From: an uncultured Bacilli bacterium | GTDB taxonomy: Bacteria > Bacillota_I > Bacilli_A > RF39 > UBA660 | Direction: 5' to 3' | NCBI GenBank assembly: GCA_947632395.1 | Contig: CANRPA010000003.1 | Location: forward strand, 257 to 64,256 | DNA: 64,000 nucleotides | Part shown: positions 1 through 50,612 of the stretch, in pieces | Layout of the letters: the number at the start of each line of letters is the position of its first letter | How positions within the stretch are numbered: position 1 is the first letter of the stretch | Notes under the pieces: generated by a model | Database searches by the model: none | Told to the model about the DNA's origin: nothing | Seen by the model: only the letters and a program-made list of their open reading frames with translations | Program-made: the position numbers and the translations under genes

Positions 1-769
1 TATTGGGTTGCTCTACTGTTTGGGTTGGAGCATTTCCTAAAAAATTAAAACTAGATTGTGTATCTTGTGGTGATGTCATATTGGGCATCATATTTATACT
101 ATTATTCATACTTTCTTCCTCTTTTTCTTCTTTTATATTTTCTGATAAGTCTAATCCATTTTTTACTTTATCGATTTCTTCATCTGTTTTTCTAACAGTT
201 AATCTTTCGCTAATTATTTTATCTAGCATTTTGTTTTGTGATTCTTCACCTTGAAGTCTAAGTAAAGATCTTGCGTGACGTTCTGATATTTTATTTTCAA
301 GTAATGCTTCCTGTACTTCATCTGATAAATTTAAAAGTCTTATTTTATTTGCTATAGATGATTGACTTTTACCCAATTTAGTAGCAAGTTTTTCTTGAGT
401 TAAATAACCCATATCAAGAATTTGTTTATATGATAATGCTTCTTCTATTGGAGTTAAATTTTTTCTTTGAATATTTTCAATTAAAGCAATTTCTGCACTA
501 TCTTTATCATTTAAGTTTTTTACTATTACAGGAACGCTTTCAAGTCCTGCTAAAACACTTGCTTTATATCTTCTTTCTCCTGCAATGATTTCATATTTAT
601 CTCCAACTGTTCTTACAACTATTGGTTGAATGATGCCATGTTCACGTATTGAATCTGATAATTCTAATATTTCATCTTCATCAAATTGTCTTCTTGGCTG
701 AAATCTATTTGGTAATATTTCATTAATATCTACTTCTAATACTCTAGAGGTATTATCAACAATAGACAT
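1..769 (-). CDS. noc: ParB-family protein of the Noc (nucleoid occlusion) type; start codon at 769-767, C-terminus runs off the window start
   Basis: Absent from the ORF track because it is open at the window edge. Hand translation gives MSIVDNTSRVLEVDINEILPNRFQPRRQFDEDEILELSDSIREHGIIQPIVVRTVGDKYEIIAGERRYKAS...ALIENIQRKNLTPIEEA...GKSQSSIANKIRLLNLSDEVQEALLENKISERHARSLLRL, then a low-complexity acidic/polar tail with no stop down to nt 2. ParB boxes plus a Noc-like recognition helix. SD GGAGG lies 7 nt upstream. It sits next to rsmG, as noc does in Bacillus. Confidence 0.8.
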   Translation of the reverse strand, partial: MSIVDNTSRVLEVDINEILPNRFQPRRQFDEDEILELSDSIREHGIIQPIVVRTVGDKYEIIAGERRYKASVLAGLESVPVIVKNLNDKDSAEIALIENIQRKNLTPIEEALSYKQILDMGYLTQEKLATKLGKSQSSIANKIRLLNLSDEVQEALLENKISERHARSLLRLQGEESQNKMLDKIISERLTVRKTDEEIDKVKNGLDLSENIKEEKEEESMNNSINMMPNMTSPQDTQSSFNFLGNAPTQTVEQPN

Positions 770-8601: not shown

Positions 8602-9121
8602 TTAAATCACCAAAACCGAATTGATGAGTATTATACTACAAAAAATTATTTTTTACTATACCAAAATTTATTTTTATCTTATTTTATATAATATTAACTG
8701 TAACTTTGATAAAATAAATTATTTCCCAAAAAAAATTTTTTTCTAATCTTTTTTAAAATTTATGCACATTTTTTTATTAAATTTATAATTATACACATTT
8801 TTATTAACTTATAAACAAAAATATTTAATTGTTTATATATTTTTGTAGATAACTTATACACATTTATGTTAATAAGTTGCTTTTTTCTTTTATTTATTAA
8901 CAAATAAATTGTTCACAAAGTATGTTCATAAAATTTTATAAAATTAATAATGCACACAAAAAAATATATATATTGTTCATAAAATTTATATATTTAAGAA
9001 TTATAATGAATTTTTACAATAAAAATAAAATTAATTTAAATATTTTATACACACATTTTTCTTGTTTTTAAATAAAAAATATTGTAAAATATATGTGTAT
9101 AAGTTTTAAGGAGGTATAGGT
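8602..9121. other. oriC, upstream DnaA-box cluster
   Basis: Boxes matching TTATNCACA: 8760-8768 TTATGCACA; 8789-8797, 8854-8862 and 9045-9053 TTATACACA; 9094-9102 TTATACACA (reverse); 8844-8852 TTATCTACA (reverse); 8909-8917 TTGTTCACA; 8948-8956 TAATGCACA. Extremely AT-rich tracts lie in between. Gene strand polarity switches here. Confidence 0.8.
9062..9090 (+). promoter_or_regulatory. Putative dnaA promoter (TTGTTT-17 bp-TGnTAAAAT) with a DnaA box just downstream
   Basis: TTGTTT at 9062-9067, TG at 9083-9084, TAAAAT at 9085-9090. A reverse DnaA box at 9094-9102 sits at about +1, suggesting autoregulation. Confidence 0.4.
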
Positions 9122-10474
9122 ATGGATCTAAACAATATTTGGAATTCATTTTTAAATAATATAAAGTCTAAAATTAATGATATTGCATATGATACTTGGT
9201 TTTCTGAAACAAAATTAATTAATTTAAATGAAAATATTGCTACTGTACTGGTTCCTTATCATATACATAAAAAAAGTTTAAGTGAAAATTATAATGATAT
9301 TATAGAAGAAGTATTTACTGAAATAACAGGATCAAATTTTAAATTTAATTATGTTGTAGAAGAGGAAATTGAAAATAATATAACTCAAAGTACTGAAATA
9401 ATAGGTGTACCTAATAACAATGAACCATTTGAAACTAATCTTGATTCTAGGTATACATTTAAAAATTTTATAATAGGTCCTAGTAACAAATTTGCAGCTA
9501 CTAGTGCACTTGCTGTTGCAGAACAACCTGGAAAAATGTATAATCCTTTATTTATATATGGTTCAAGTGGGTTAGGTAAGACTCACTTAATGCAAGCAAT
9601 AGGTAATTACATAGTAAAAAATAGCAATAAAAAAGTTTTATATATACCTTGTGATACTTTTATAAATGATTTTATTGATATATATAGAGATCCATCTTCA
9701 AATAATATTGAAGCTATAAAAAAATTTAAAAATAAATATAGAGATATAGATGTATTGATGATTGATGATATTCATTCATTAGTAAGAGCAAATAGCGCAC
9801 AACAAGAATTTTTTAATACATTTAATGATTTATATAATAATGAAAAGCAAATAATAATATCTTCTGATAGATCTCCTGATGATATAAAAAAATTAGAAGA
9901 GCGTTTAAAAACAAGATTTAATTGGGGACTTCAAGTAAACATTTTACCTCCTGATTTTAAACTTAGAATGGAAATATTAGATAATAAAATAGCAAACAGT
10001 GAACTTACAGAAGTTGTTCCTTATGATGTTAAAGAATATATAGCTAGTAATTGTGTAGGGGATGTTCGTAGACTTGAGGGATCAATTACTCGTGTGTTTG
10101 CTTATGCTACTATGATGAATGGTAGTGAAATAACTCTTGAAATTGCTAAGGAAGCACTTAAAGATGACTATTCTAAAGCTTCTTTATCACAAAATAAAAT
10201 GGATCAAGTTATACAGATTGTTTGTGATTATTATAATGTAAAAGAAGAAGTATTTTTAAGTAAAAATAGAAGTAATGAAGTTGCTATACCTAGAATGATT
10301 GCAATGTATATATGTAGAACTTATTTAGATGAAAATTTAACAAAAATTGGTATTAAATTTGGTGGTAAAAATCATACAACGGTAATGCACGCAGTAAATA
10401 AAATAAAAAAAGCTATTCTTGAAGATGATAAATTAAATACAGAAATTCAAAAAATGATAAATCAAATAAGATAA
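9122..10474 (+). CDS. dnaA: Chromosomal replication initiator protein DnaA
   Basis: 450 aa. AAA+ Walker A GSSGLGKTHL and C-terminal DNA-binding domain GGKNHTTVMHA. SD GGAGG upstream. Confidence 0.98.
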   Translation: MDLNNIWNSFLNNIKSKINDIAYDTWFSETKLINLNENIATVLVPYHIHKKSLSENYNDIIEEVFTEITGSNFKFNYVVEEEIENNITQSTEIIGVPNNNEPFETNLDSRYTFKNFIIGPSNKFAATSALAVAEQPGKMYNPLFIYGSSGLGKTHLMQAIGNYIVKNSNKKVLYIPCDTFINDFIDIYRDPSSNNIEAIKKFKNKYRDIDVLMIDDIHSLVRANSAQQEFFNTFNDLYNNEKQIIISSDRSPDDIKKLEERLKTRFNWGLQVNILPPDFKLRMEILDNKIANSELTEVVPYDVKEYIASNCVGDVRRLEGSITRVFAYATMMNGSEITLEIAKEALKDDYSKASLSQNKMDQVIQIVCDYYNVKEEVFLSKNRSNEVAIPRMIAMYICRTYLDENLTKIGIKFGGKNHTTVMHAVNKIKKAILEDDKLNTEIQKMINQIR

Positions 10475-10602
10475 TGTGCATATTAAAAATTATAAACTTT
10501 TTTATACACATATATTTTATTTTGAAAATAAAGAATAAAATAGGGTTATTAACATTATACACACTAATAAGAATAATAAATATATAAGAAAGAAGGAAGT
10601 AT
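10475..10602. other. oriC, downstream DnaA-box cluster (dnaA-dnaN spacer)
   Basis: 10475-10483 is the reverse of ATATGCACA. 10502-10510 and 10555-10563 are TTATACACA. An AT-only stretch lies between them (candidate unwinding region). Confidence 0.65.
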
Positions 10603-11840: not shown

Positions 11841-12323
11841 ATGGAGGATTATGAAATAAATTCAGCAACTCTTGCAATTATACCAATTGATGAAAAAACA
11901 TCTATGGTATACGAGGAAGAAGAAAATTATGTAGTAAAAAAATCTTCTAATAGTATTATTAAAAATAGTTGCGAATATTATGGTAGTACTTATGAAGGAA
12001 GATGTATAGGTACAAAAACATTAACTGGAATTAAAGGTAAATATCCAATAATAATAGAAGAGAGTAGAAATATAATATTCTTTCCAACGGCTTCTATAAG
12101 AAAAAATCAAAGTAGTTGGATAGCTCTTAATAAGATAAAAAAATACTCTAAATATAAAAATATAAGTAATGTTGTGTTTAAAAATGAAAAATCATTAAAA
12201 ATAGATATAACTTATTATACTTTAGAAAATCAAATTTTACGTGCTAATTTATTAAGTGCAAAAATATTAGAAAGAAAAGAAAAATTATATCAACAATCTA
12301 TTTTAGATAATAATAAAAAATAA
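11841..12323 (+). CDS. comK: ComK-family protein (competence transcription factor homolog)
   Basis: 160 aa. Blocks align with my recollection of B. subtilis ComK: YEINSATLAIIP vs YEVNGATIAVLP; SCEYYGSTYEGR..PIIIEESRNIIFFPTAS vs SCRFFGSSYAGR..PIMVDPSNQIFLFPTLS; SSWIALNKIKKY vs CGWISHVHVKEF; ITYYTLENQILRANLL vs ISYNSFENQVYRTAWL. SD GGGGGA upstream. Confidence 0.75.
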   Translation: MEDYEINSATLAIIPIDEKTSMVYEEEENYVVKKSSNSIIKNSCEYYGSTYEGRCIGTKTLTGIKGKYPIIIEESRNIIFFPTASIRKNQSSWIALNKIKKYSKYKNISNVVFKNEKSLKIDITYYTLENQILRANLLSAKILERKEKLYQQSILDNNKK

Positions 12324-15518: not shown

Positions 15519-18083
15519 ATGGAAAATAATAATGAAACACAAGAAAATAATGAAGAAATAATAGAAAAATCAGAAAAGTTAAATAATTCAGATATTTTTC
15601 ATGAAAGAGATAGTTTATCTGAAAATAATATAGTAAGTGAGGTAAGTAATTCATTTCTTGATTATTCAATGAGTGTTATTACTTCACGTGCTATACCTGA
15701 TTTAAGAGATGGTTTAAAACCTGTTCATAGAAGAATTTTATGGTCAATGTATGAAGAGGGAAATACACCAGATAAACCTCATAAAAAATCAGCAACAACC
15801 GTTGGATATGTTATGGGACATTATCATCCACATGGTGATTCATCAATATATGAAGCAATGGTTCGTTTAGCTCAAGATTTTAATCAAAGATATATGCTTG
15901 TCGATGGACATGGAAATTTTGGTAATATAGAAGGTGATGGTGCAGCAGCATATCGTTATACAGAAGCACGTCTCTCTAAAATATCTCTTGAATTACTTAG
16001 AGATATAAATAAAGAAACTGTTAATATGGATGACAATTTTGATGCAACAAGTAAAGAGCCTGAAGTATTACCTAGTAGATTTCCAAATGTACTTGTTAAT
16101 GGATCTATGGGAATAGCTGTTGGTATGGCAACTAATATACCACCTCATAATTTAGGTGAAGTTATAGATGGATGTATTGCATATATAGATAATCCAGATA
16201 TTGATACAATCGGACTTATGAAATATATAAAAGGTCCAGATTTTCCAACAGGTGGGGTGATTTTGGGAAATTCTGGTATAAAAAAAGCATATGAAACAGG
16301 TAGAGGAACAATTACTATAAGAAGTAAGGCATCAATTGAGGAACATGCTGGTCATAGTCAAATAATAATTACTGAGGTTCCATATGGTGTAAATACACAA
16401 GATTTAAAAAATAAAGTAGCAGAATTAGTTCATACAAAGGTTATCGAGGGAATTTCTGACTACCATACAGATTTAAAAAATGGTGTAAAAATTACAATTA
16501 CATTAAAGAAAGATGCAAATGCACAAGTTATTCTTAATAATTTATACAAACATACTTCATTTCAGATAAGTTATGGAATTATATTCTTAATGATTGATAA
16601 TAAAACACCAAGGACTTTACCACTTAAAGATATAATTTCAAAATATATTGATTATCAAAAAGAAATTATTATAAGAAGAACTAAATTTGATTTAAAAAAA
16701 TCTGAAGCAAGAGTTCATATATTAGAAGGTTATAAGATTGCTCTTGATAATTTAGATGCTGTAATTAAAATTATTAGAGAATCTGAAACAGATCAAGAGG
16801 CAAGAGATTCTTTAATGAATAATTTTAGTTTAACTCAGATACAAGCAGATAGTATTCTAGAATTAAAATTAAGAAGATTAACTGGTCTTGAAAGAGCTAA
16901 AATTGAAGAAGAACTTAGTAATTTACTTAAATATATCGATGAATTAAATTCAATACTTTCAAGTGAACAAAAGGTTCTTGATATAATTAAAAAAGAATTA
17001 TTAGAAATTAAGAACAAATATTCGGATGAAAGAAGAACTTCTATTGATATGACTGCTATTGATTATATAGATGATGAATCACTTATACCTGTTGAAAGTT
17101 TAGTAGTAACTCTTACTAATAAAGGATATATTAAACGTGTAGGAAGTGAAAACTATAAATCTCAAAATAGAGGTGGAGTTGGAATTAAAGGAATGACAAC
17201 TAATGAGGAAGATTTTGTAGAAAATATACTTTCAATGACAACACATGATTATGTAATGTTTTTTACAAATAAAGGAAAGGTTTATAGGATGAAAGGGTAT
17301 GAAGTACCTTTATATAATAGACAAGCCAAGGGACTTCCTATAATTAATTTGTTACCAATAGAAAAAGATGAAAAAGTAAACGTAATGTTAAAAGTAACAC
17401 CTGATGATAAAGATTCATATGTTGTATTCTGTACTAAAAATGGTAACATAAAGAAAACAAAAATAGAAGAATTTGAAAATATAAGAACAAATGGTAAAAT
17501 TGCAATAACATTAAAAGAAAATGATGAGTTAATTTCAGCAAAAATTACAAGAGGCAATTCAGAAATACTAATAGCTTCTTCAAATGGTAGAATTATAAGA
17601 TTTAATGAAAATGAAATAAGAGTCATGGGAAGAACTGCTTCTGGTGTTAGAGGAATTGATGTTGGTGATGGCTTTGCAGTTGGAATGGAAGATTCATCAA
17701 TAAATAAAGAAGTTCTTGTAGTAACTGAAAATGGTTATGGAAAAAAGACAAATATAGAACAATATAGAATGACTCATAGAGGAAGCAAAGGTGTTAAAGC
17801 CCTTAATGTTACTGAAAAAAATGGAAATATTGTTTCATTTAAGATGGTAAATGGTGATGAAGATTTAATGATTATAACTGATAATGGTGTTATAATTAGA
17901 TTACCACTTATCCAAGTTTCTTCAACAGGTCGTGTTGCGCAAGGTGTTAAATTAATTAATTTAAAAGATAATCAAAAAGTTAGTACAATTGCAATTATTG
18001 ATCATGAGGATGTACAAGAAGAAACAACAAATATTGAAAATACTGAAATTATTGAAGAAAATATTAAAGATGAAAATAATTAA
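15519..18083 (+). CDS. gyrA: DNA gyrase subunit A
   Basis: 854 aa. Active-site region AAYRYTEARL, QRDR HPHGDSSIYEAM, C-terminal beta-pinwheel repeats and an acidic tail. Confidence 0.98.
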   Translation: MENNNETQENNEEIIEKSEKLNNSDIFHERDSLSENNIVSEVSNSFLDYSMSVITSRAIPDLRDGLKPVHRRILWSMYEEGNTPDKPHKKSATTVGYVMGHYHPHGDSSIYEAMVRLAQDFNQRYMLVDGHGNFGNIEGDGAAAYRYTEARLSKISLELLRDINKETVNMDDNFDATSKEPEVLPSRFPNVLVNGSMGIAVGMATNIPPHNLGEVIDGCIAYIDNPDIDTIGLMKYIKGPDFPTGGVILGNSGIKKAYETGRGTITIRSKASIEEHAGHSQIIITEVPYGVNTQDLKNKVAELVHTKVIEGISDYHTDLKNGVKITITLKKDANAQVILNNLYKHTSFQISYGIIFLMIDNKTPRTLPLKDIISKYIDYQKEIIIRRTKFDLKKSEARVHILEGYKIALDNLDAVIKIIRESETDQEARDSLMNNFSLTQIQADSILELKLRRLTGLERAKIEEELSNLLKYIDELNSILSSEQKVLDIIKKELLEIKNKYSDERRTSIDMTAIDYIDDESLIPVESLVVTLTNKGYIKRVGSENYKSQNRGGVGIKGMTTNEEDFVENILSMTTHDYVMFFTNKGKVYRMKGYEVPLYNRQAKGLPIINLLPIEKDEKVNVMLKVTPDDKDSYVVFCTKNGNIKKTKIEEFENIRTNGKIAITLKENDELISAKITRGNSEILIASSNGRIIRFNENEIRVMGRTASGVRGIDVGDGFAVGMEDSSINKEVLVVTENGYGKKTNIEQYRMTHRGSKGVKALNVTEKNGNIVSFKMVNGDEDLMIITDNGVIIRLPLIQVSSTGRVAQGVKLINLKDNQKVSTIAIIDHEDVQEETTNIENTEIIEENIKDENN

Positions 18084-18095
18084 TATTTAAATATA

Positions 18096-18111
18096 TGTTT
18101 CACGTGGAACA
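18096..18111. other. parS site 1 (TGTTTCACGTGGAACA)
   Basis: 15/16 match to the palindromic parS consensus TGTTTCACGTGAAACA. The extended palindrome ATATGTTTCACGTGGAACATAT is followed by a T-run. Confidence 0.85.
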
Positions 18112-18121
18112 TATATTTTTT

Positions 18122-18137
18122 TATTTCCTGGGAAATA
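18122..18137. promoter_or_regulatory. Near-consensus Noc-binding-site-like palindrome (TATTTCCTGGGAAATA)
   Basis: 15/16 match to the NBS consensus TATTTCCCGGGAAATA as I recall it. Located between parS sites 1 and 2. Confidence 0.4.
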
Positions 18138-18151
18138 GTAGTTTATTTTAA

Positions 18152-18167
18152 TGTTTCACGTGAAACA
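18152..18167. other. parS site 2 (TGTTTCACGTGAAACA, perfect)
   Basis: 16/16 palindrome, extended to TTTTAATGTTTCACGTGAAACATTAAAA. Confidence 0.88.
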
Positions 18168-18233
18168 TTAAAATAAATATAAAATAGCCTACAAATTATA
18201 AAAATATTATTAATTTTTTATATAATTAATCAA

Positions 18234-18249
18234 TGTTCCACGTGGAACA
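18234..18249. other. parS site 3 (TGTTCCACGTGGAACA)
   Basis: Perfect palindrome variant with C/G at positions 5 and 12. Confidence 0.85.
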
Positions 18250-18295
18250 TTGTATAAATTTATAATTTTAAATAAATAATAAATAAGAATGGTAA

Positions 18296-18311
18296 TGTTT
18301 CACGTGAAACA
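18296..18311. other. parS site 4 (TGTTTCACGTGAAACA, perfect)
   Basis: 16/16 palindrome. Confidence 0.88.
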
Positions 18312-18435
18312 TTATAAAAAATAATATAAATTTATTTACATCATTATATTTATACAAAATATTTATATTTGAATTAAGTAAAAATAAAAAATAGTCTTTA
18401 AATTTTCTAAATATGTATATTTTTATATAGTACAA

Positions 18436-18451
18436 TGTTCCACGTGAAACA
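18436..18451. other. parS site 5 (TGTTCCACGTGAAACA)
   Basis: Identical to the classical B. subtilis parS sequence as I recall it. Confidence 0.88.
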
Positions 18452-18494
18452 TTAAATAAAATTATATTTTAACTGAATAATATAAAAATGGTAA

Positions 18495-18510
18495 TGTTTC
18501 ACGTGAAACA
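18495..18510. other. parS site 6 (TGTTTCACGTGAAACA, perfect)
   Basis: 16/16 palindrome. Confidence 0.88.
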
Positions 18511-18644
18511 TTATAAAAAATTGATATAAATTTATATTTGTAATATACTATTTATGCACAACATTTATGTTTGAACTAGGTCAGAGTTGGAAAACAGCAG
18601 CCTTAAAAATCTCTAAATGTGTGTGCTTTTTTTATATAATTCAA

Positions 18645-18660
18645 TGTTTCACGTGAAACA
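18645..18660. other. parS site 7 (TGTTTCACGTGAAACA, perfect)
   Basis: 16/16 palindrome. It is the only site without a partner about 60 bp upstream. Confidence 0.88.
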
Positions 18661-18753
18661 TTATAAAAAATAATATAAATTTATTTACATTATTATATTT
18701 ATACAAAATATTTGTATTTGAATAATTAAAAATAAAAAAATATTTTTTAAATT

Positions 18754-18782
18754 TTCTAAATATGTATATTTTTTTATATAAT
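18754..18782 (+). promoter_or_regulatory. Putative tadA-dnaX promoter (TTCTAA-17 bp-TATAAT) embedded in the last parS module
   Basis: TTCTAA at 18754-18759, a 17-nt spacer, TATAAT at 18777-18782. Degenerate copies of the same element precede parS sites 3, 5 and 7. Confidence 0.3.
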
Positions 18783-18789
18783 TAATTAA

Positions 18790-18805
18790 TGTTCCACGTG
18801 GAACA
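18790..18805. other. parS site 8 (TGTTCCACGTGGAACA)
   Basis: Perfect palindrome variant, 7 nt downstream of a TATAAT hexamer. Confidence 0.85.
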
Positions 18806-18847
18806 TTGTATAAAACTATAAATTTAATTAAATAATAAAAAAATTAA

Positions 18848-18863
18848 TGTTTCACGTGAAACA
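18848..18863. other. parS site 9 (TGTTTCACGTGAAACA, perfect)
   Basis: 16/16 palindrome ending 2 nt before the tadA SD (GGAGG, 18866-18870). Confidence 0.88.
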
Positions 18864-18877
18864 TTGGAGGTATATAT

Positions 18878-19291
18878 ATGAATGAATATTATATGAATAT
18901 AGCAATAAAAGAAGCAAAAAAAGCTTTGAAACATGATGAAGTTCCAATAGGAGCAGTAATAGTTAAAAATAATAAAATTATATCAAAAGCATTTAATAAA
19001 AGAGAAACAAAAAAAAATATAATAAATCATGCAGAAATTTTAGCAATTTCTAAAGCATGTAAAAAATTAAAAAATTGGAGATTAAATGATTGTACAATTT
19101 ATGTGACAATGGAACCTTGTATGATGTGCTCTGGTGCAATAGAACAAGCAAGAATAAATAAAGTTGTATATGGTATAGATAATGAAAAATATGGTTATAT
19201 AAAAAATATAAAATGTGCACAAATTGTTTCTCATGTTTGTGAAAGTGAATGTAAAAATATTGTCCAAAATTTTTTTAAAAAAAAGAGATAA
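18878..19291 (+). CDS. tadA: tRNA-specific adenosine deaminase TadA
   Basis: 137 aa with CDA zinc motifs HAE and PCMMCSGA. Confidence 0.93.
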   Translation: MNEYYMNIAIKEAKKALKHDEVPIGAVIVKNNKIISKAFNKRETKKNIINHAEILAISKACKKLKNWRLNDCTIYVTMEPCMMCSGAIEQARINKVVYGIDNEKYGYIKNIKCAQIVSHVCESECKNIVQNFFKKKR

Positions 19292-43427: not shown

Positions 43428-44213
43428 ATGGGAAAAATAATAGCATTTGTAAATCAAAAAGGTGGAGTTGGAAAAACTACATCTAGTATAAATTTAGCAG
43501 CATCCCTAGGACTTTTAGGTAAAAAGACTCTATTAGTTGATTTAGATCCACAAGGAAATAGTACAACAGGAGTAGGAATAAATAAGGGTGAATTTGAAAA
43601 TAGTACATATGAACTTTTATTAGATAAAGCAGAGATAAGAAAAGTAGTAGTTAATACAAAATTTAAAAATTTATATGTTATGCCTGCATCAATAAATTTA
43701 GCAGGTGCTGATATGGAACTTATGGAAAAGGCTAGAACTAATCCAGAGTTTGTACCACAACTTCAATTAAAAAAGAATTTATCTGGTGTTAAAGATTTAT
43801 TTGATTATATAATTTTGGATTGTCCTCCATCTTTAGGTCTTATTACGACAAATGCTCTTGCAGCAGCAAATTCAGTAATAATACCTGTACAATGTGAATT
43901 TTTCGCACTTGAAGGAATAATGCAATTACTAACTTCAATTATGTTCGCACAGCGTAAGTTAAATCCATCACTTGAAATAGAAGGTGTATTACTTACAATG
44001 TTAGATAATCGTACAAATTTAGGTCTTGAAGTTGTAGAAGAAATTAAAAGTTACTTTAAAGAAAAAGTATATGATACTATAATTCCTAGACTTGTAAAAT
44101 TATCAGAAGCACCAAGTCATGGAAAACCAATTCATGCTTATGAGCCAAAAAGTAGAGGAACAGAAGCATATATAAACTTAGCAAAAGAGGTGATAGAGAG
44201 AAATGGAAACTAA
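43428..44213 (+). CDS. soj: Chromosome partitioning ATPase ParA/Soj
   Basis: 261 aa with deviant Walker A NQKGGVGKTT, and DLDPQGN. Confidence 0.95.
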   Translation: MGKIIAFVNQKGGVGKTTSSINLAASLGLLGKKTLLVDLDPQGNSTTGVGINKGEFENSTYELLLDKAEIRKVVVNTKFKNLYVMPASINLAGADMELMEKARTNPEFVPQLQLKKNLSGVKDLFDYIILDCPPSLGLITTNALAAANSVIIPVQCEFFALEGIMQLLTSIMFAQRKLNPSLEIEGVLLTMLDNRTNLGLEVVEEIKSYFKEKVYDTIIPRLVKLSEAPSHGKPIHAYEPKSRGTEAYINLAKEVIERNGN

Positions 44214-45072
44214 AAAAAGAGCTCTTGGAATGGGATTAGAGCAATTATTTAATTCAGAAAATCTTGATTTAGAGAAATTTGAACAACAAGTTTATGAAAC
44301 TGCAGATAAAGAAGAAATACAGGAAATAAATATAGAAGAACTTAGACCTAATCCATATCAACCACGTAAAATATTTAACGATGAAGCTTTAAAAGATTTA
44401 TCAGATTCAATACGTGAACACGGTGTTTTTCAACCAATTATAGTAAAAAAGAGTATTAAAGGTTATGAAATAATAGCTGGTGAAAGAAGAGTTAGAGCAT
44501 CTAAATTAGCAGGGCTAAAAAAAATTCCAGCAATTATTCGTAATTTAAATGATGAACAAATGATGGAAATAGCTTTACTTGAAAATTTACAAAGAGAAAA
44601 TTTAAGTGCGATAGAAGAAGCTATTGCTTATAAAACAATGATAGAAAAACTCTCACTTACACAAGAACAATTATCTTTAAAAGTTGGTAAAAGTAGAAGT
44701 CATATAACAAATATATTAGGTCTTTTAAGATTACCAGAAGAGGTACAAAAGATGGTAGCTGATAATGAACTTAGTATGGGTCATGCACGTGTACTTAGTA
44801 AGTTAGAGGATAATGAAAAAATAATTAAAATGGCACATGAAATTGTGGATAAGAAAATACCTGTAAGAGAAATTGAACAGGAATCTGGTACTGAAATTAA
44901 AAAAGTAAAAATTGAACGACATGTACAAAATAATGAATATAAATATGTAGAAGAAATGCTTATAGAAAAATTAGATACTAAGGTAAAAATAAGAGATAAA
45001 AAAATAGAAATATCATTTAATAATACTGCTGATTTAAATAGAATATTGGAAGTATTAAATATAAAGAGTTAA
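44203..45072 (+). CDS. spo0J: Chromosome partitioning protein ParB/Spo0J
   Basis: 289 aa with LRPNPYQPRK, GERRVRAS and LENLQRENL. The HTH GKSRSHITNILGLL...LSMGHARVL is Spo0J-like. Overlaps soj. Confidence 0.95.
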   Translation: METKKRALGMGLEQLFNSENLDLEKFEQQVYETADKEEIQEINIEELRPNPYQPRKIFNDEALKDLSDSIREHGVFQPIIVKKSIKGYEIIAGERRVRASKLAGLKKIPAIIRNLNDEQMMEIALLENLQRENLSAIEEAIAYKTMIEKLSLTQEQLSLKVGKSRSHITNILGLLRLPEEVQKMVADNELSMGHARVLSKLEDNEKIIKMAHEIVDKKIPVREIEQESGTEIKKVKIERHVQNNEYKYVEEMLIEKLDTKVKIRDKKIEISFNNTADLNRILEVLNIKS

Positions 45073-47642: not shown

Positions 47643-50612
47643 ATGAAACAAAATATAAAATTTAAAAAGTATAAAAATATAAAGGCATTTACTTTAATAG
47701 AATTACTAGCTGTAATAGTAATACTAGCTATGTTAGCTTTAATCGCAGTTCCAATTGTTACAGGATTAATTGAAAACTCAAGAAAAAAAGCAGCGCTCAT
47801 AAGTGCTGAAAATGTATTAAAAATTGGGAAAATTTATCACACATCTAATAGATTAAGCTATAATCCTGAAACAGGATTGATAAGATTCGATTGTAAAGAT
47901 AATAAATGTATATCTACAGAATTAGATTATTATAATCCTCAAGAACTAGTCATGGATGGTCAAGTAGGCGATGGATATATTCTTGGAAGTAAGGATGGGA
48001 ACTTTGCTTTTCAACTTTCTATGTATGGATATTGTGCATATAAATACTTTGGTAGTGATGAAATAAAAGTAACTAGAGGGGATTGCAGTAAGATTGAATT
48101 TTCTAATGATGCTACAAGACCAATAATAGTAGAAAAAGAGAATTCTCCAATTGCTTCAAGTAATCGAATTATAATAAGTTATGACATAACTGAAAATGAA
48201 TCTAAAATAACAGATGTAACATGTAGATATGGAGATAAAGATTTTTCTTTCGATAAAACTTCAGATGAAGTAAATGATAGTCAATGTACAATAAGAGATG
48301 TAGAATTTGGCAAAACAATATATTATGAAATATGTGCTACAGATGAAGGTAAAAATGTTACTAAACCATGTTTAACAGGAAAAGCAACGACAAAACCAGT
48401 ATCAGCTCCAACAATCGCATGGCAAGGATATAATTACGTAGGAACTACAAATGTAATTATGGATGGATATGTGTATAGTGATGAAGCAACAGTTAATTTT
48501 GATGATATAGGAGTATATAATGCTAAACATTATATAAAAACAAGTGTAAATACAAAAGTAAATGTAGAAGCTATTCCATGTGGAACAGGAGTAAATCCAG
48601 TATGTGAAGATCGAGCAAGTACATTAGCAATTTTAAATGCTAATACTTGGTATCAAATAACAGGTAATAAAGTAGTAGTAACTTTTGATGAGCAAGGAAA
48701 TATTGAAGCATATACATATGATGAAACAGGTAATAAAGGATATTCAAATGGAAATAGTAGAAAAATAGATAAAACCGCACCAACTAATATAAATTCAAAT
48801 ATAAGTAATATTACATCTAATAGTGTTACTGTAAATGCAATGTGTTCTGATCAAGAATCAGGAATTGAAAAGATTGAAATCAGTAAAGATGGTGGAAAAA
48901 CATATGAAGCTTACAAAATGATTGATAGTTTGTGGCAAATGGAAACATCTTTTGGACTTACTAATTTATCATTAACAAAATCAAATGTTTATGAAAATGG
49001 AACAAAAGTTTATAAATATGTATTTAATAATATTTCTGATTCTAAGCAAAGTGGAATATATTATCGTTCACAAAATTATCCACAAAAATTAACAAATGGT
49101 ACAGAATATGTTTGGTCAGTTTATTTAAAATCAAATCGTGATATAACAGTAGAATTCTTAGGTCAAGAACAATATGGATATAGTAGAGATTCTTTAAAAA
49201 CAAATTTTGAAAGATATGATAAATTATTTACAGCAAAAGAACATCCAAATAGTGCATTTGTAATTTATGGTCCATTTATAGCAAATGATGAATTATATGT
49301 ACATTCATTATCATTAAGAGAAAAAGGTGTATATAGTAAAGAAGCTTCATTTGAATATACTTTTAATGATTTGACAGATAGTTCATATGATATAAAGGTT
49401 AGATGTACAAATAATTTAGGACAAATGAGTGAAGGAGAAGCAACAACTACAACAAAATCAGCTATTAGTTTTGAACATGAAAATATAACAATCATAAATA
49501 ACGGAAATAAGGAAGAAATAGATTATGCCTTAAGAAGTGGTTTAACTGTTAAAGATAAAGATGGACAAATTATAAATAATGCAACTGTAAGTTATGATTT
49601 AGATATTAATAATCTAGAAAATAAAGAATATAACGTTATTTATACAGCTACTTATGACGATAAAGTAATTACCCGTTTGAGAAAAGTTAATGTTACAAAT
49701 AAAACAAATATAACAACATTTGATACACCAGGAGAAGGACATGCCTTTACACCAACATATAATGGAGTATATAAAATAGAGCTATGGGGAGCTCAAGGAG
49801 GAAATGATGGAGGCCATGGAGCTTATACATCAGGAAATATAGAGTTAGATTCTAATGATACATTATATGTCTATGTAGGTGGTGAAGGAAAAACTATAAA
49901 CTGGGAATCAGGTGATATGTCTTCTATTGATGGCGGATTTAATGGTGGCGGTATTGCTGTCAATCAAAGAACATTTTCAAATCGATATTGGGGAAGTGGC
50001 GGAGGTGCCACAGATATACGATTAAAAAGTGGTTTATGGGATGACTTTGATAGTTTAAAAACTCGCATTATGGTAGCAGCTGGTGGAGGAGGCTCATTTA
50101 ATCAGAGTAATATAATTTGTCAAGGCGGAGTTGGTGGAACTCTTACGGGTTTTGATGGAGAACATATTTCAGGTAATACATGGGGAACAGAAGGCCTTGG
50201 TGGTACACAGAAATCTGGAGGTTATTCATCTTGCTTAGCTAATACATCATGCCCAAATATAGTTGGAAATTATGCTTTTGGTGGTTTTGGCTTGGGTGGT
50301 CAAAGTTTTACAACAGGACATTCTGGAGGTGGAAGTGGCTACTATGGTGGAGGAGGCTCTTTTCACGTTCAGTCAGCAGGAGGAGGCTCATCCTTTATTT
50401 CAGGATATGAAGGCTGTGATGCTATAGAAGAAGAATCCACTATAGACCATATTATTCATACAGGAAAATCTATTCATTATAGTGGATATATATTTGATAA
50501 TCCTAACATGATTGCAGGTAATAGTGACATGCCAAATTACGATGGAAATGGTACTATAGTAGGTAATAGTGGTAATGGATACGCCAAAATAACTTTAATA
50601 TATTATTATTAA
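47643..50612 (+). CDS. Large prepilin-signal (type IV pilin-like N-terminus) multidomain surface protein with a C-terminal glycine-rich domain
   Basis: 989 aa. N-terminus KNIKA/FTLIELLAVIVILAMLALIAVP has the class III signal with E at +5. Then come a Cys-containing pilin-like head, several Ig/Fn3-like segments (DKTAPT...), a jelly-roll-like segment, and a C-terminal 295 aa of the type YKIELWGAQGG...GGFNGGG...GGGATDIRL...VAAGGGGS...GGGSGYYGGGG...AGGGSSFISGY. Confidence 0.8.
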   Translation: MKQNIKFKKYKNIKAFTLIELLAVIVILAMLALIAVPIVTGLIENSRKKAALISAENVLKIGKIYHTSNRLSYNPETGLIRFDCKDNKCISTELDYYNPQELVMDGQVGDGYILGSKDGNFAFQLSMYGYCAYKYFGSDEIKVTRGDCSKIEFSNDATRPIIVEKENSPIASSNRIIISYDITENESKITDVTCRYGDKDFSFDKTSDEVNDSQCTIRDVEFGKTIYYEICATDEGKNVTKPCLTGKATTKPVSAPTIAWQGYNYVGTTNVIMDGYVYSDEATVNFDDIGVYNAKHYIKTSVNTKVNVEAIPCGTGVNPVCEDRASTLAILNANTWYQITGNKVVVTFDEQGNIEAYTYDETGNKGYSNGNSRKIDKTAPTNINSNISNITSNSVTVNAMCSDQESGIEKIEISKDGGKTYEAYKMIDSLWQMETSFGLTNLSLTKSNVYENGTKVYKYVFNNISDSKQSGIYYRSQNYPQKLTNGTEYVWSVYLKSNRDITVEFLGQEQYGYSRDSLKTNFERYDKLFTAKEHPNSAFVIYGPFIANDELYVHSLSLREKGVYSKEASFEYTFNDLTDSSYDIKVRCTNNLGQMSEGEATTTTKSAISFEHENITIINNGNKEEIDYALRSGLTVKDKDGQIINNATVSYDLDINNLENKEYNVIYTATYDDKVITRLRKVNVTNKTNITTFDTPGEGHAFTPTYNGVYKIELWGAQGGNDGGHGAYTSGNIELDSNDTLYVYVGGEGKTINWESGDMSSIDGGFNGGGIAVNQRTFSNRYWGSGGGATDIRLKSGLWDDFDSLKTRIMVAAGGGGSFNQSNIICQGGVGGTLTGFDGEHISGNTWGTEGLGGTQKSGGYSSCLANTSCPNIVGNYAFGGFGLGGQSFTTGHSGGGSGYYGGGGSFHVQSAGGGSSFISGYEGCDAIEEESTIDHIIHTGKSIHYSGYIFDNPNMIAGNSDMPNYDGNGTIVGNSGNGYAKITLIYYY

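Follow-up and report, generated by a model that had tools for sequence, protein, structure and literature searches.

Within a 64,000-nucleotide window of contig CANRPA010000003.1, from an uncultured Bacilli bacterium (assembly GCA_947632395.1), the 794-bp gap between the gyrA stop codon and the tadA start codon contains nine exact matches to TGTTNCACGTGNAACA, the 16-bp parS palindrome of the ParB (Spo0J) chromosome partitioning system. We consider it likely that this gap is an origin-proximal chromosomal centromere, that is, a multi-site zone for the loading of ParB-CTP clamps. Canonical parS sites, a cognate ParB, purifying selection and a conserved position together make a high-density ParB nucleation platform the best reading of the array. 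An earlier note on this DNA, made from the sequence alone, had reported nine sites in the gap, and each of the nine start positions that it gave proves to be an exact match. The sites and the two flanking genes, the latter identified with NCBIfam, are as follows.

15519-18083: gyrA
18096..18111, no strand: parS1, TGTTTCACGTGGAACA, exact match
18152..18167, no strand: parS2, perfect TGTTTCACGTGAAACA, exact match
18234..18249, no strand: parS3, TGTTCCACGTGGAACA, exact match
18296..18311, no strand: parS4, perfect palindrome TGTTTCACGTGAAACA, exact match
18436..18451, no strand: parS5, TGTTCCACGTGAAACA, exact match
18495..18510, no strand: parS6, perfect palindrome TGTTTCACGTGAAACA, exact match, 10 bp upstream of the ffs -35 hexamer
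18645..18660, no strand: parS7, perfect palindrome TGTTTCACGTGAAACA, adjoining the ffs terminator U-run on its 3' side
18790..18805, no strand: parS8, TGTTCCACGTGGAACA, exact match
18848..18863, no strand: parS9, perfect TGTTTCACGTGAAACA, ending 2 nt before the tadA Shine-Dalgarno sequence GGAGG (18866-18870)
18878-19291: tadA

The perfect palindrome TGTTTCACGTGAAACA accounts for five of the nine sites, and the remaining four vary only at positions 5 and/or 12, as the earlier note had described. Its assignment of the sites to canonical parS also holds, since all nine match TGTTNCACGTGNAACA, conform to the 16-bp palindrome TGTTNCACGTGAAACA by which chromosomal parS is recognized, and represent palindrome variants that have both served as bona fide parS probes (PMC3597684). 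When up to two mismatches are allowed, the window contains 10 matches, compared to 0.20 +/- 0.43 in dinucleotide shuffles. The sole match outside the gap, with two mismatches, is at 48572; it sits inside a 989-aa open reading frame (ORF; 47643-50612, + strand) with no NCBIfam family at E<=1e-5. No further exact parS was found in the rest of the 64-kb window or in a 9-kb extension of the contig. Isolated half-sites occur at four places elsewhere in the window (21785, 33816, 40160 and 48580), where the earlier note had counted one. Successive sites in the gap are spaced by 56, 82, 62, 140, 59, 150, 145 and 58 bp, so that nine parS fall within 0.77 kb at a density of one per 85 bp.

The genome also encodes a cognate ParB with parS-specific residues and a CTP-binding motif, next to its ParA-family partner Soj.

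43428..44213, + strand: soj/parA, ParA-family ATPase (NCBIfam ParA-family, E about 1e-30), overlapping parB by 11 bp
44203..45072, + strand: parB/spo0J, parS-type (NCBIfam; R173, I179, R184, G201)

This pair is what the earlier note had proposed for positions 43428-45072. R173 and G201 belong to the residue code, taken from PMC7383237, that separates specificity for parS from specificity for the Noc-binding site (NBS). ParB further carries the GERR CTP motif and an N-terminal KKRALGMGL that fits the ParA-stimulating pattern LG-x-GL, and its best PDB match is Bacillus subtilis Spo0J (6SDK, 219 bits, versus 174 bits for Noc). Neither soj nor parB contains a parS at <=2 mismatches, which bears out the earlier statement that spo0J lacks an internal site. 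To the right of oriC, at a distance of about 34 kb, the two genes are flanked by ddl and a gene for an MscS-family channel, with no parS nearby; they are displaced by 34 kb from their usual rsmG-noc neighbourhood (rsmG is at 878-1579 of the window). A noc gene beside soj-parB was looked for and is absent, the neighbours being the MscS channel gene downstream and ddl upstream; a Noc-type gene is found instead at the left edge of the window.

The array is close to the replication origin. NCBIfam matches give the gene order dnaA, dnaN, recF, gyrB, gyrA, gap, tadA, dnaX, ybaB, recR, and the origin was placed as follows.

8760..10563, no strand: oriC, with DnaA-box clusters at 8760-9094 (upstream of dnaA) and 10502-10555 (between dnaA and dnaN)

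The GC skew changes sign and reaches its minimum at 8-10 kb. Taken together, the DnaA-box clusters and the skew minimum put the array 7.5-9 kb from oriC, in agreement with the figure of about 8 kb in the earlier note. The distance from the array to soj-parB is 25 kb.

The same note had treated the gap as purely non-coding DNA. This description does not stand, since the gap holds an RNA gene, two decayed copies of it, a site resembling an NBS (discussed below) and the terminator of gyrA.

18312..18435, + strand: pseudo-ffs unit U1, AT-decayed duplicate of ffs with its promoter, between parS4 and parS5
18521..18549, + strand: ffs promoter, TTGATA, 17-nt spacer, TATACT (10/12 matches), the best promoter-like site in the region
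18546..18642, + strand: ffs, gene for the small bacterial signal recognition particle (SRP) RNA of the 4.5S/scRNA type (Rfam RF00169)
18661..18789, + strand: pseudo-ffs unit U3, between parS7 and parS8, 92 % identical to U1

The ffs gene matches RF00169 over the full model (1-97) with 56.2 bits against a gathering score of 40, and its SRP helix starts at about 18556, some 7 nt 3' of the promoter; the above-threshold match, the promoter and the terminal U-run together identify a bacterial small SRP RNA. An orthologous ffs occupies the matching slot in 15/15 relatives that cover the region. U1 and U3, each bracketed by intact parS, align end to end with the promoter-plus-gene unit of ffs and have lost G/C positions: their GC contents are 10 % and 6 %, compared to 30 % for the ffs unit, and their minimum free energies are -8.2 and -9.4 kcal/mol, compared to -18.2 for ffs. 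Neither has an Rfam SRP match at E<=1, and neither folds better than shuffles. As decayed duplicates of ffs, U1 and U3 show that tandem duplication of a parS-ffs-parS module built up the array. At the gyrA end, parS1 with its flanks (18078-18125) is predicted to be the gyrA intrinsic terminator, the modelled RNA having a stem of 13 bp (dG -12.4 kcal/mol, z -5.6) and then a U7 run; loci L044, L127 and L162 of related genomes share this arrangement. Two minus-strand terminator-like matches coincide with parS3 and parS8. At the other end, abutment of the last parS on the tadA Shine-Dalgarno sequence recurs in L044, L127, L162, L087 and L158. No credible protein gene was found among the gap's ORFs, which are all of low complexity and <=55 aa. 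Other structured RNAs were considered and rejected, as Rfam gave only sub-threshold chance matches to eukaryotic families.

Several observations indicate that the array is authentic. ENA contig NODE_29 has exactly the same gap sequence, although the window itself may have been taken from that contig. An independent Logan contig, derived from a different run, shows no differences from 18661 on; its start just behind parS7 is typical of breaks caused by repeats. The repeat units have diverged (92 % and 81 % identity) and are therefore resolvable in assembly. In a sister lineage whose DnaA is 93 % identical, two independent assemblies, L162 from NCBI and L163 from ENA, agree with each other: each contains nine parS with ffs among them, an NBS-like site follows parS1, and the last parS abuts the tadA ribosome-binding site. 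The spacers are not those of the window, and pseudo-ffs units are absent. That nine sites persist in both lineages, although spacers have turned over and the extra ffs copies have decayed, indicates that the palindromes themselves are maintained. Across the nine palindromes of the window, 126/126 constrained positions are intact, and the 16-mers have a mean pairwise identity of 0.94, whereas their 20-bp flanks reach 0.48-0.52 and 20-mers drawn at random from the gap 0.36. These observations support the conclusion that the parS sites are under purifying selection.

The earlier note had suggested searching relatives for parS and mapping the positions, and this search revealed that the array is conserved in the gyrA-tadA slot. 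We scanned one genome per species, 185,579 species in all, for three parS spaced 36-66 bp apart and obtained at least 120 loci; the counts per locus that follow are among the matches listed. Arrays of 3 to 15 parS in <=1 kb, mostly next to parAB, occur in at least 120 species of many phyla, among them Bacillota, Bacteroidota, Proteobacteria, Actinomycetota, Planctomycetota, Acidobacteriota and phyla of the Candidate Phyla Radiation (CPR). Per locus, the median size of the largest run is 4 sites; at least 11 loci have 9 or more, up to 15 in 520 bp. At least 53 arrays lie <=1.5 kb from soj/parB or rsmG/mnmG. At least 22 lie in the gyrA/tadA/dnaX region, and 22/22 of these come from low-GC gut metagenome-assembled genomes (MAGs) labelled "uncultured Bacilli/Tenericutes" that are related to the window, with GyrA 59-85 % identical to its own. 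The clade's layout is gyrA, array, ffs, tadA. Regular tandem units were found in the following loci.

L030: 15 units of 36 bp
L095: 5 units of 39 bp
L065: 11 units of 54 bp
L009: 10 units of 55 bp
L052: 7 units of 64 bp
L075: 7 units of 74 bp

These periods have no common phase, and helical phasing of the sites was rejected on this ground. Contigs from MAG bins labelled Methanobacteriaceae archaeon and Muribaculaceae (L065, L070, L116) carry the clade's gyrB-gyrA-array-ffs-tadA-dnaX; the labels probably reflect bin contamination or mislabelling. A second set of relatives, taken from a dnaA-anchored metagenome scan and thus unselected for parS (n=11), gives a similar picture: 8/11 have 4-10 exact parS in the gyrA-ffs-tadA slot and none elsewhere in 21 kb, and the other 3/11 have 1-2 degenerate parS hugging ffs.

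A second ParB-family protein is encoded at the left edge of the window, and the source contig, which reaches 11 kb to the left, places its gene directly downstream of rsmG, the canonical position of noc. This gene and the candidate binding sites related to it are listed here.

1..769, - strand: Noc-type ParB paralogue, first 256 codons of 652 aa, continuing past the window (L123:10811-12769)
18122..18137, no strand: NBS-like palindrome TATTTCCTGGGAAATA, between parS1 and parS2, 15/16 versus TATTTCCCGGGAAATA
L019, 3560-4050: alternating NBS/parS array, 8 units of 64 bp
L013, 920-1560: alternating NBS/parS array, at least 8 units of 82 bp
L055, 19-233: alternating NBS/parS array, 76-bp units
L082, 4553-4947: alternating NBS/parS array, 76-bp units

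Orthology of the 652-aa protein to Noc is supported by sequence comparison. It has the Noc-type residues Q173, K179, N184 and R201 (QKNR) together with the GERR CTP motif, and among PDB structures it matches Noc best (7NG0, 7NFU and 7OL9, 213 bits, compared to 167-176 bits for Spo0J). Its score with the NCBIfam Noc model TIGR04285 is 291 bits, below the curated cut-off of 315, and covers profile positions 2-211 only; this partial alignment arises because an insertion of about 370 aa, a repetitive linker rich in Q, N, P and T, separates the conserved C-terminal domain. The protein begins just 8 residues ahead of the position corresponding to residue 27 of G. thermoleovorans Noc, at a start codon preceded by a strong Shine-Dalgarno sequence. 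The N-terminus is thus about 20-26 residues short, and the protein therefore has no membrane-targeting amphipathic helix. Four complete homologues in related MAGs (325-380 aa) are alike in having Noc-type domains and a linker and in lacking the helix. The gene is conserved across related MAGs at 62-85 % identity and, with QKNR or QKKR residues, follows rsmG in 10/10 relatives that reach the region. The linkers in the clade are of low complexity and 100-400 aa long, and the exact length of the gene is uncertain because contigs often break inside its repeats.

The NBS-like site of the window, TATTTCCTGGGAAATA, deviates by a central C -> T from TATTTCCCGGGAAATA, which we take to be the full 16-mer Noc-binding site consensus. 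The core string ATTTCCCGGGAAAT occurs in PMC8429893. Near-homologous sites follow parS1 in L044 (perfect) and L162/L163 (15/16); in L154 a perfect NBS comes immediately behind gyrA. The most unusual observation comes from four relatives, known from 8-kb excerpts, in which each unit of the array contains one perfect NBS and one parS (L019, L013, L055 and L082, listed above). Among the 122 loci examined, NBS at <=2 mismatches is confined to the window's clade. A fixed geometry between parS and NBS was ruled out, as the spacings vary by species. Between gyrA and the alternating array of L082 lies a disrupted transposase-like ORF (L082:4948-6107). Single perfect or near-perfect NBS also occur in or beside dnaX (L070:4057, L116:2235 and L150:20928, inside the dnaX match in L116 and L150), which suggests a conserved dispersed site; the window's dnaX has no NBS at <=3 mismatches. 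In the window, the half-NBS TATTTCCC is found at 815, 838, 1060 and 1083, in the noc-like promoter region and the 3' end of rsmG, and relatives have a near-complete NBS in the noc-like promoter (L129:3349, L154:1994). Judging from their position, these motifs may serve autoregulation. Our literature search found no paper on tandem NBS arrays at the origin.

Comparison with known systems shows where the array is ordinary and where it is not. The window resembles the Spo0J-Soj system of B. subtilis in its identical 16-bp consensus, the R...G residues and CTP motif of ParB, the Soj partner and the origin-proximal sites. B. subtilis differs in that its eight parS are scattered across about 0.75 Mb (PMC8357415), whereas all detectable sites of the window are in one 0.77-kb gap and soj-parB has none. 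The earlier note had presented this concentration as unusual. However, the scattering found in Bacilli is the exception and sites clustered within a few kb to 40 kb are the norm (PMC8357415), and dense arrays occur in many phyla, so density alone is not exceptional; other arrays of this kind exist, and setting the window against B. subtilis made it look more unusual than it is. Clustered parS loci include those of Myxococcus xanthus (22 sites), Streptomyces coelicolor (20-23), Caulobacter and Pseudomonas (PMC3899335; PMC7333895). Corynebacterium glutamicum has 10 parS in 35 kb (PMC7083940), and clusters of parS serve in ParB loading and chromosome folding (PMC7083940; PMC8357415). The window shares with such loci many mostly intergenic sites near oriC and, by analogy, what would be a single ParB nucleation zone or folding hub. 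It differs in that its origin by duplication is visible, an RNA gene is embedded in the array, and the density is about 40-fold higher than in C. glutamicum (one per 85 bp versus one per 3.5 kb).

The likeness to a plasmid centromere proposed in the earlier note survives in part. A dense platform for ParB nucleation is the best reading of the motif, the ParB, the selection and the conservation, whereas the irregular spacing is not that of sopC-type iterons. In plasmid F, SopB binds a 16-bp inverted repeat that is present in each of the 12 tandem 43-bp repeats of sopC (PMC3597684). Both have many ParB-family palindromes in <1 kb; the array in the window differs from sopC in being chromosomal, in using canonical parS, in its irregular spacing of 56-150 bp with interruptions by ffs and pseudo-ffs, and in having no adjacent parAB. 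Instead of lying beside parAB, as a plasmid or phage centromere would, it is flanked by dnaA-dnaN-recF-gyrBA and tadA-dnaX-recR. A constant period of the sopC kind is seen in L030, L065, L052, L075 and L009, the first three of which match the sopC architecture closely. With the Noc-NBS system the window and its relatives share an NBS-like palindrome (15/16 in the window, 16/16 in relatives) and an rsmG-adjacent paralogue with Q173, K179 and R201. Noc sites are otherwise scattered around the chromosome, and membrane binding by Noc needs its N-terminal amphipathic helix (PMC8429893); the clade's protein differs in lacking this helix and having a long linker, and in some relatives NBS are interleaved with parS at the origin.

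We infer from these features that the nine sites act as independent loading sites for the CTP-dependent clamp of ParB. Each palindrome would nucleate a ParB dimer, which would close upon CTP binding and slide onto flanking DNA. The rate of loading at a single place, 7.5-9 kb from oriC, could be multiplied by having nine sites in 0.77 kb, and one compact partition complex would form there for Soj-driven segregation. SMC recruitment may follow, by analogy with B. subtilis and C. glutamicum. The array probably grew and was remodelled from an ancestral parS-ffs-parS core by tandem duplication and by unequal recombination between parS copies, with selection retaining the palindromes while the duplicated filler, including the two extra copies of ffs, decays. 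Some sites probably also have secondary roles at the RNA level or near promoters, with parS1 contributing to the gyrA terminator and parS9 placed at the 5' end of tadA. Several points weigh against this interpretation. A single parS is enough in C. glutamicum (PMC7083940) and Pseudomonas aeruginosa, so nine may not be needed. The three relatives with only 1-2 degenerate sites imply that high copy number is dispensable. A copy number derived from short reads could be slightly off, as Logan contigs break inside the array. Lastly, the genome may hold further parS beyond the roughly 75 kb that were read.

Sufficiency of one site also speaks for an alternative in which the array is mostly a neutral repeat expansion, with one or two ffs-flanking parS functional and the rest by-products of slippage or unequal crossing-over. 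The range of 1 to 15 copies among relatives, the species-specific periods and the identical units of L052, which indicate a very recent expansion, are consistent with this idea; we regard it as unlikely, since all constrained positions remain intact where spacers and ffs copies have decayed, and both sister lineages keep nine sites despite spacer turnover. Still less probable is a primarily transcriptional function, with the sites serving gyrA, ffs and tadA-dnaX as operators, terminators or insulators. The strong terminator-like hairpin of parS1 and its flanks after gyrA, the position of parS6 relative to the ffs -35 hexamer, the abutment of parS9 on the tadA Shine-Dalgarno sequence in several species and the minus-strand terminator-like matches at parS3 and parS8 fit such a function. 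However, the 16-mer is the universal ParB site, the arrays of other phyla lie beside parAB without ffs or tadA, promoter spacing varies among relatives and most sites have no U-runs, so that any role of this kind is best seen as secondary moonlighting. We consider it highly improbable that the array stems from faulty assembly or represents a dispersed element of the repetitive extragenic palindromic (REP) or miniature inverted-repeat transposable element (MITE) type. Short-read Logan contigs do break in the array, and many relatives' arrays are at contig ends, yet the identity with NODE_29, the independent Logan contig from 18661, the diverged units and the two agreeing sister assemblies speak otherwise. 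As for a dispersed repeat, the motif is canonical parS, and no exact copies were found beyond the gap in the window, in the 9-kb extension (about 75 kb in all) or in the eleven 21-kb regions of relatives.

One further possibility extends the centromere interpretation and does not exclude it. The gap could be a composite platform, a joint loading zone for ParB and a helix-less Noc-type clamp with a long disordered linker, which would build a mixed nucleoprotein complex near the origin; the window would keep only a vestige of it in its one 15/16 NBS-like site. We hold this only tentatively for the window, and it is similarly doubtful that the centromere of the clade as a whole is a two-paralogue device, in which ParB and a Noc-derived clamp would be co-loaded from adjacent or alternating parS and NBS around ffs. 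The confinement of NBS to this clade among the 122 loci, its strict alternation with parS in four relatives, its recurrence after parS1 (window, L044, L162/L163) or gyrA (L154), the Noc-type gene after rsmG in every relative that reaches it and the Noc orthology obtained from reciprocal PDB and NCBIfam scores all point in this direction. On the other hand, the window has nine parS and a single imperfect NBS, parS alone is amplified in L030, L065, L052, L075 and L009, the inconstant spacing of parS and NBS argues against a defined hetero-complex, and dispersed NBS, such as those inside dnaX in L070, L116 and L150, fit ordinary Noc behaviour.

The array is an ultra-dense chromosomal parS cluster built by duplication around ffs, conserved in a clade of uncultured Bacilli and interleaved with NBS in some relatives. 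We found no published chromosomal parS tandem array of less than 1 kb in the literature covered, which excludes the survey of Livny et al. 2007. Reviews leave open why parS copy number varies although one site suffices, and what drives clustering (PMC7333895). At the sequence level the arrays answer how clusters form, namely by tandem duplication around a seed site, in which palindromes survive while the DNA between them decays, even where that DNA is a duplicate of an essential RNA gene. If the centromere interpretation is correct, tandem arrays directly show the origin of a parS cluster in local amplification under selection for palindromes, and centromeres as dense as plasmid sopC exist on the chromosomes of many phyla. 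The alternating arrays and the helix-less Noc offer a natural system in which to ask whether two ParB-family clamps cooperate or compete, and they bear on the role of Noc before, or besides, nucleoid occlusion. Should the two clamps indeed share the zone, Noc would gain a centromere-associated role distinct from nucleoid occlusion, and a two-paralogue centromere might retain, or have arrived anew at, an intermediate in the divergence of Noc from ParB. In practice, such arrays break short-read assemblies at the origin, and they provide compact natural cassettes for DNA labelling based on ParB or Noc.

One other feature of the origin region may be recorded. In the interval between dnaN and recF, an ORF at 11841-12323 (+ strand) has no NCBIfam match, and its counterpart in the sister lineage carries the Pfam domain ComK (PF06338).

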